DNA of 64,000 nucleotides from Escherichia coli (GCF_036507355.1 NZ_AP027877.1), one strand, 5' to 3'; shown: positions 51,767 through 52,261, counted from the first letter of the stretch. Notes: a model not told the origin generated them from the sequence alone. Made by a program: numbers and translations.

Positions 51767-52170
51767 TCATGTCTGTGACGCTAAAGTAACAAAGTATTCA
51801 CCTTATGTCCATACAGGTTTTGATTGAAATCATGAAACTGTGCACATTTTAACAACTTGACATATATAACGTTTCAAAGTTGTAACTATGCACAAATGTA
51901 GACTTTACGTAGGAAAGGGATTTTTTAACGATTATTAAACTATAAAAATCCGAATTGAACCGATTCACTTACCAATTTTGTGATTTTTAATTCAGTTAAA
52001 ACGAATTTAAATTCATTCTGCATATTGAGAGGGGTTGAGGCTGAGCTTTACAAACGGTTTCTTTTTAAGCAACTCATCTTCAACCATGCATAAAGCGGGT
52101 GCATTCGCTGCCGCATACCATTATTCTTGATCTGACGGAAGTCTTTTTGTAACAATTCAAACTTCTTTGA

Positions 52171-52188
52171 TGTAAACAAATTAATACA
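52171..52188 (+). promoter_or_regulatory. Putative TyrR box in the aroP promoter region
   Basis: tgtaaa-caaatt-aataca resembles TGTAAA-N6-TTTACA; about 75 bp upstream of aroP start. Confidence 0.35.
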
Positions 52189-52261
52189 ACAAACGGAATT
52201 GCAAACTTACACACGCATCACTGCGTAGATCAAAAAAACAATCACCGCACGAGGTTTCATA

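Follow-up and report, generated by a model that had tools for sequence, protein, structure and literature searches.

The pdhR–aroP spacer of Escherichia coli: a known control region whose conserved blocks keep a fixed spacing

What fills the long AT-rich stretch of non-coding DNA between the divergent genes pdhR and aroP of Escherichia coli, and does it hold anything beyond the control sites of these two genes? We examined the question in a 64,000-nucleotide stretch of E. coli DNA (NZ_AP027877.1, assembly GCF_036507355.1), which is called the window here and is numbered from its first base. Of 5,426 complete E. coli genomes, 5,423 matched a query of 801 bases around the spacer, with a top identity of 99.8%, and the only annotated features under the match were pdhR and aroP. 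The RefSeq start codon of pdhR, which lies on the minus strand, is the ATG at 51718, and aroP begins on the plus strand with the ATG at 52262, leaving a spacer of 543 bp at 51719–52261. A longer, TTG-initiated pdhR reading frame in a mechanical ORF list differs from the RefSeq-annotated gene and was set aside. The initial annotation had drawn the gap as 495 bp, from 51767 to 52261; a long AT-rich non-coding gap between the divergent genes is indeed present, but its left edge had been placed at the first base past the PdhR operator rather than at the gene.

The corresponding spacer in K-12, whose position x converts to window position 51718 + (122092 − x), measures 540 bp and differs by five substitutions in those 540 bp. 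The difference in length arises because aroP begins one codon earlier in K-12: positions 52259–52264 read ATGATG there and ATAATG here, so that the start moves 3 nt downstream and AroP has 456 rather than 457 amino acids. The GC content is 26–34% across 51750–52050, as against 55–60% in both flanking genes. The description of the gap as unusually long is correct on the local scale: the K-12 annotation of the corresponding 65 kb contains about 55 intergenic gaps, none longer than this one, and those that follow it in size measure 369 and 354 bp. The RefSeq annotation of K-12 places neither an RNA nor a small gene in the spacer. Elsewhere in the window, the aceF–lpd spacer (46016–46222) is 207 bp long, as it is in CFT073, whereas that of K-12 is 324 bp and carries an extra 117 bp.

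The spacer is very probably a control region shared by the divergent pdhR and aroP genes, bipartite in layout and composed of protein-binding DNA rather than of a gene. As a locus it is already known and ordinary; it also appears in a published list of promoter islands, and the usp pathogenicity island (PAIusp) is known to integrate there. Every published site sequence that could be retrieved was found in the window as an exact string, which makes this the same locus as the known E. coli aroP–pdhR control region, with the start codon of aroP as the only apparent functional difference. The transcription start sites (TSSs) and the PdhR, FNR, ArcA, and TyrR sites are published and were re-mapped here; the −10 sequence of the aroP promoter P3 and the intergenic location of the island are likewise published, and the coordinates of P3 and of the island junction were mapped in this work. 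On the pdhR side, the following features were placed.

51719–51776, minus strand: pdhR 5′ UTR, 58 nt from the TSS at 51776 to the ATG at 51718, located by matching the published promoter string, whose last base is the TSS
51750–51766, no strand assigned: PdhR operator AATTGGTnnnACCAATT, +11 to +27, a perfect and unique match identical to the published box
51777–51811, minus strand: pdhR core promoter, −10 TACTTT (51788–51783) and −35 TGGACA (51811–51806), hexamers read off the sequence against the published TSS
51783–51803, minus strand: ArcA box pdhR2 (−27 to −7), published 21-mer AGGTGAATACTTTGTTACTTT, exact
51820–51833, no strand assigned: FNR site ATGATTTCAATCAA, centred at −50.5, published as a predicted site under an FNR ChIP-seq peak, exact
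51842–51856, no strand assigned: block C GCACATTTTAACAAC, conserved, no published regulator
51868–51900, no strand assigned: block D, overlapping a Cra-like half-site TGAAACGTT (minus strand, about 51866–51877), no published regulator
51922–51942, minus strand: ArcA box pdhR1 (−167 to −146), published 21-mer TAGTTTAATAATCGTTAAAAA, exact
51955–51968, no strand assigned: block F TTGAACCGATTCAC, an imperfect palindrome TGAA-N4-TTCA, conserved, no published regulator
51969–52047, no strand assigned: variable AT-rich linker of 79 bp, free in sequence and fixed in length
52048–52068, no strand assigned: block G TTACAAACGGTTTCTTTTTAA, conserved, no published regulator

The pdhR TSS is an A located 58 nt 5′ of the ATG; position 51776 corresponds to K-12 122034, as determined by 5′ RACE and in two genome-wide TSS maps, and the published pdhR promoter string matches 51776–51814 exactly. 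The PdhR operator sequence AATTGGTCTTACCAATT has a single perfect match in the window, downstream of this TSS. The operator that had been assigned to the interval beginning at 51767 is therefore real, but it ends one base short of that interval and lies in the pdhR 5′ UTR. Two ArcA binding regions about 140 bp apart have been reported. The ArcA ChIP-seq peak positions, K-12 121923–121950, convert to 51860–51887, so that the peak centre falls under or adjoining block D and not above the predicted ArcA box 49 bp away. According to published work, CRP acts on the pdhR operon as an activator and Cra as a repressor, with Cra placed downstream of the promoters in one paper; the resemblance of block D to a Cra half-site was judged by eye only, as were comparisons with LacI-, GalR-, and NsrR-type operators, and we make no claim from any of these. 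A PlaR SELEX peak also lies inside the spacer. Blocks F and D were tried as the published PlaR box ATnTGAAACnnnGTTCAnTT and rejected, the half-site spacing of F being wrong and D fitting one half only.

On the aroP side, the promoters and TyrR sites occupy the remainder of the spacer.

52088–52134, plus strand: aroP P1 with upstream block H; −35 TGCATT (52100–52105), −10 TATTCT (52123–52128), TSS a G at 52134, hexamers read off the sequence
52115–52145, minus strand: aroP P3, overlapping P1; −10 TGGTAT (52120–52115), a published sequence that occurs once in the spacer, and putative −35 AAGACT (52145–52140)
52148–52188, no strand assigned: two TyrR boxes, the strong box at 52171–52188 (two mismatches to the consensus) and the weak box probably at 52148–52165
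52134–52261, plus strand: aroP 5′ UTR, 128 nt, with the conserved ribosome-binding region CACGAGG at 52249–52255

The P1 TSS at 52134 corresponds to K-12 121676, and the 51-nt promoter string of the genome-wide TSS table fits this position. In ChIP data, sigma-70 peaks in the spacer occur at the pdhR and aroP promoters only, and the aroP peak at K-12 121650 converts to 52160. The −35 element proposed for P3 was deduced from the published statement that K-12 differs at two bases from AGTACT of UTI89, and the coordinates of the weak TyrR box follow from a centre-to-centre spacing of 23 bp. The TyrR-box-like sequence that had been noticed near aroP, TGTAAACAAATTAATACA at 52171–52188, is well supported by its position, its 81% conservation, and the literature; the TyrR pattern alone would say little, as it occurs 23 times in the window against 24.7 expected and thus shows no excess over chance. 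In the literature on aroP, P1 is described as the major promoter, P2 as lying 21 bp downstream of P1, and P3 as divergent from and overlapping P1; TyrR, bound at two boxes, is described as recruiting RNA polymerase to P3 together with aromatic amino acids and so shutting off P1, and P3 itself as transcriptionally non-productive in K-12. In Salmonella, a RamA ChIP site corresponds to 52101–52115 of the window.

The initial annotation had suggested that the spacer offered room for additional regulator sites. Such sites are already documented: FNR, two ArcA regions, CRP, Cra, PlaR, RamA in Salmonella, the aroP promoters P1, P2, and P3, and two TyrR boxes. By the same token, the estimate of about 350 bp of sequence lacking an assigned function was too high, since much of this DNA carries published sites, and about 245 bp (51834–51921 and 51943–52099) lies outside them. 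The binding and regulatory data for these sites come from K-12 under few conditions.

Taken together, the sites suggest a two-part mechanism. The pdhR module, from about 51719 to 52068, would be transcribed from a sigma-70/sigma-38 promoter starting at 51776, and PdhR on its operator at +11 to +27 would block this transcription until pyruvate frees PdhR. FNR at −50.5 and ArcA at −27 to −7 and −167 to −146 would repress the same promoter anaerobically, with CRP and Cra also acting, and blocks C, D, F, and G would stretch the module to about −292. The aroP module, from about 52088 to 52261, would start transcription from P1 at 52134; downstream of P1, TyrR with aromatic amino acids would occupy its strong and its weak box and direct polymerase to P3, and the overlap of P3 with P1 would shut P1 off. 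An AT-rich linker of fixed length and free sequence lies between the blocks, and the junction between the modules is the site occupied by the usp island in uropathogenic strains, where P3 drives usp.

A different possibility, raised by the initial annotation, was that a small RNA with regulatory function is encoded on its own in the AT-rich centre or, in a related form, that P3 gives rise to a stable non-coding regulatory transcript. The spacer is the longest gap in its neighbourhood, P3 does initiate transcription toward pdhR according to the literature cited above, the first 60 nt or so of such a transcript would span the conserved blocks H and G, and there is a weak Cappable-seq start at K-12 121774(+), which is 52036 on the minus strand of the window. 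However, this start has a score of 1.55, among the lowest listed and at threshold level, compared with 1290 for the pdhR start on the same, pdhR-direction strand among the starts listed; it lies inside the linker and does not coincide with P3. P3 itself is absent from two TSS maps (in the case of Cappable-seq, from among the starts listed), one of which records within the spacer only 122034(+) and 121676(−), equivalent to 51776 and 52134. Its non-productive character in K-12, as described in the literature, also speaks against a stable product, and the final T of its −10 sequence is lost in most other genera, whereas the overlapping P1 −10 is invariant. In usp-positive strains, moreover, a 4.6-kb island parts blocks E, F, and G from P3.

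Direct searches for an RNA gave the same picture. An Rfam cmscan of 50500–53000 at E ≤ 10 returned tp2, which lies outside the spacer, and a single chance match with E = 7.2, but nothing else; no Rfam family was found in the spacer. Scans of the region and spacer yielded no consensus promoter and no terminator-like site; the real promoters are themselves weak matches, which renders the promoter scan uninformative about further weak promoters. Single-sequence folding showed no excess stability (z = −1.38 for the P3 transcript, −0.78 for the opposite strand, and +0.40 for the aroP 5′ UTR). Sliding RNAalifold analysis of a 78-species alignment on both strands recovered no more than short hairpins, which coincide with palindromic blocks that in some cases are known to bind proteins, and the two strands gave small hairpins of a similar kind; we did not rely on z-scores from column shuffling in places where conserved columns are mixed with variable ones. 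Blocks C and D together form a nested inverted repeat, which was considered as a structure and discarded, because the blocks are near-invariant and the variable positions between them lack compensatory change. Term-seq in three growth conditions recorded no 3′ end between K-12 120140 and 122093, an interval that includes the spacer (121552–122091).

Essentially, then, the K-12 transcript maps, which cover few growth conditions and a strain other than this one, contain no starts or ends in the spacer apart from those of the pdhR and aroP mRNAs and the one threshold-level call, and the small-RNA idea essentially fails the check that the initial annotation had set for it. One further start is known, that of aroP P3, which has been described as a regulatory promoter and gives no productive transcription when the usp island is absent. 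We consider a small RNA in the spacer highly improbable and regard the idea as one that can be closed, in a region that is textbook-level and multiply mapped.

Two observations concern RNA ends and structures adjoining the spacer. A Term-seq 3′ end at K-12 122093, recorded in one condition, corresponds to 51717 on the minus strand, at the pdhR start codon, which implies an RNA of about 60 nt from the pdhR 5′ UTR that carries the PdhR-box palindrome. The tp2 match (RF02030) lies in the pdhR–aceE spacer at 50796–50909 on the plus strand (103 bits, E = 1.9e-19), with a weaker match on the minus strand at 50833–50880, and published Term-seq 3′ ends at K-12 122941 and 122968 fall in this region, at about 50869 and 50842 on the minus strand; the match is probably the pdhR terminator or attenuator hairpin. 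Like the spacer studied here, the tp2 locus is a long intergenic region adjoining pdhR, but tp2 is recovered by Rfam, whereas the pdhR–aroP spacer shows no Rfam match, terminator, mapped 3′ end, or independent start.

A hidden gene for a small protein is less credible still. The spacer does contain ORFs of 15–44 codons, some of which are kept in more than 60 of 78 species. However, the retained ORFs fall within the ultra-conserved promoter DNA that precedes the pdhR start, have GTG or TTG as their first codon, are located where no transcript has been mapped, and differ in length between species. In addition, K-12 RefSeq, which includes validated micro-proteins such as the 14-amino-acid YacM nearby, annotates none in the spacer. 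The search for conserved small ORFs in the spacer across 78 species produced no convincing candidate.

We then compared the locus across the Enterobacteriaceae. A PdhR scan with one genome per species gave 80 loci, and aroP was the divergent neighbour of pdhR in 77 of the 80 species, with a spacer of 529–656 bp, mostly 534–547 bp. In Superficieibacter sp. 1612_C1, the aroP–pdhR spacer measures 1,981 bp (positions 6019–8001 of its locus), and, judging from this length, something else has been inserted there. Mean identity to the window over the 77 species was compared with a neutral proxy of 57%, the value for third codon positions of pdhR. It reached 99% for the PdhR box, 95% for the pdhR core promoter, 93% for the FNR site, and 95% for block C, followed by 79% for block D, 84% for block F, 80% for block G, 84% for block H with the P1 −35 element (52088–52108), and 81% for the strong TyrR box. 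The ArcA box pdhR1 was conserved at 63%, and the F–G linker, at 41%, fell below the neutral proxy.

Although the linker has diverged in this way, the distances between the blocks have not. Measured from start to start, the interval from the PdhR box to the FNR site was 70 bp in 77 of 78 species, that from block C to block D 38 bp in all 49 of 49, that from block F to block G 100–102 bp in 62 of 65, and that from the FNR site to block H 271–274 bp in 71 of 78; the distances from the FNR site to block C (22 bp) and from block G to block H (35–36 bp) were likewise constant. Block spacings are thus held within 1–2 bp over about 360 bp across genera, and the aroP leader is the only part of the spacer that varies in length (61–188 bp between species). 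Control spacers from the same loci spanned 119–599 bp for pdhR–aceE and 175–358 bp for aceF–lpd. New here is the finding that the blocks stay at frozen spacing while the 79-bp linker drifts. The pattern draws attention to four short, conserved elements that have no published regulator and precede the gene for the master regulator of pyruvate dehydrogenase. These elements, blocks C, D, F, and G, most likely bind further proteins, and we infer that their fixed spacing is functional.

The fixed spacing could also reflect a structure rather than a row of independent sites. In such a scheme, a single higher-order nucleoprotein structure, a loop or wrap formed by ArcA, H-NS, or another factor on blocks C to G, would make the length and helical phase of the linker matter. 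The constancy of the spacings within 1–2 bp over about 360 bp, in a region whose linker has diverged past the neutral proxy and in loci whose control spacers vary widely in length, points in this direction. The A/T character of the linker is also kept without base identity, in particular over its first 40 bp (A/T fraction of 0.73 over 51969–52010), and AA/TT dinucleotides show a periodicity peak at 10.5 bp, 3.3 times the shuffled level, but these statistics come from related species that are not independent samples, as holds for the spacings too, and are suggestive only. The two ArcA regions about 140 bp apart would suit a structure of this kind, as would H-NS binding at the spacer, which a single one of the compared data sets reports. 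On the other hand, the FNR study lists the FNR site as enriched for none of Fis, H-NS, and IHF, and usp-positive strains tolerate a 4.6-kb insert between blocks G and H, which argues that the aroP side is dispensable for any structure. Overall, we rate a single higher-order structure as possible but distinctly the less favoured prospect. With similar reserve, we put forward a more specific version, in which the pdhR upstream region to about −292 would serve as a fixed-geometry platform, blocks C, D, F, and G binding a regulator or nucleoid protein new to pdhR and the linker joining F and G by looping or wrapping. If this tentative proposal were true, the expression of pyruvate dehydrogenase would be subject to an additional level of control, so far undescribed and shared throughout the Enterobacteriaceae.

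The preferred reading, a bipartite control region, can be examined in strains that carry the usp island, which integrates in the aroP–pdhR spacer and is driven by aroP P3. About 1,060 of the 5,423 matching E. coli genomes, or roughly a fifth, matched the query in two pieces. Three such genomes were opened (CFT073, U12A, and WP3-S18-ESBL-08), and each had an insert of 4.6–5.2 kb in the spacer, consisting of an Hcp-nuclease fusion annotated as tssD (usp) followed by arrays of immunity genes. Comparison with U12A located the point of insertion.

52069–52088, no strand assigned: PAIusp insertion point, empty in the window; in U12A, homology stops after block G and resumes at 52089

No usp or imu ORFs are present in the 543-bp spacer of the window, which therefore represents the empty site of the same intergenic region. 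In U12A, diverged copies of blocks E, F, and G remain beside pdhR, and block H remains beside aroP. The usp genotoxin island thus amounts to a natural experiment that shows which blocks go with which gene, and its result is consistent with the two-module layout. Because the insertion falls between G and H, it splits the spacer into a pdhR module that extends to 52068 and an aroP module that begins at 52088; it also means that the AT-rich centre is ancestral rather than a scar of the island and that no higher-order structure can need the aroP side. The position also fits the view that usp could make use of P3 as a promoter already in place.

The island strains also differ from the window in the DNA that flanks the insert. 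Their pdhR side is 99–100% identical to the window, whereas their centre, from block E to block G, is a diverged allele resembling that of other genera. Across the aroP promoter and the opening 140 nt of the gene (52089–52400, aligned with positions 14094–14404 of the U12A locus), identity is only 86–87%, so that island strains combine a diverged centre with an aroP flank at 87%. This pattern suggests that the island may have arrived by homologous recombination with foreign flanking DNA. CFT073 has, in addition, an IS3-family transposase inserted between blocks C and D, at a distance of about 85 bp on the upstream side of the pdhR start (positions 9301–10514 of the CFT073 locus, at about 51860 in window coordinates).

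The presence of the island raises the converse question of whether the AT-rich DNA is itself a decayed, horizontally acquired remnant, either a usp-island scar or a trace of some other mobile element. The low GC content of 26–34% fits this idea, as does the occurrence of the usp island in the spacer of about a fifth of E. coli genomes, and the interval is listed among promoter islands, most of which are linked to foreign genes. Promoter islands, as defined by Shavkunov, Panyukov and Ozoline, are 78 AT-rich regions of E. coli that have densely predicted starts, are bound by RNA polymerase, give little transcript, and are associated with H-NS. The published entry 121694_343 aroP(−)/pdhR(+) covers K-12 121694–122036, which is 51774–52116 in the window. 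The spacer resembles these regions in being AT-rich and almost devoid of transcripts besides those of the two gene promoters. Unlike most promoter islands, which go with horizontally acquired genes, it is ancestral: the spacer, its blocks, and their spacing are common to 77 species from Escherichia to Serratia, and foreign DNA in the form of PAIusp adjoins the region in other strains only. No similarity could be detected between the central segment and the interior of the island, and when the segment was tried as an island scar, BLAST and local alignment recovered only the orthologous blocks E, F, and G. A foreign origin of the AT-rich DNA is accordingly hardly tenable. A second published promoter island (K-12 156927, 379 bp) also falls in the window, where it maps to the yadN–folK spacer at about 16505–16883, the second-longest gap at 369 bp.
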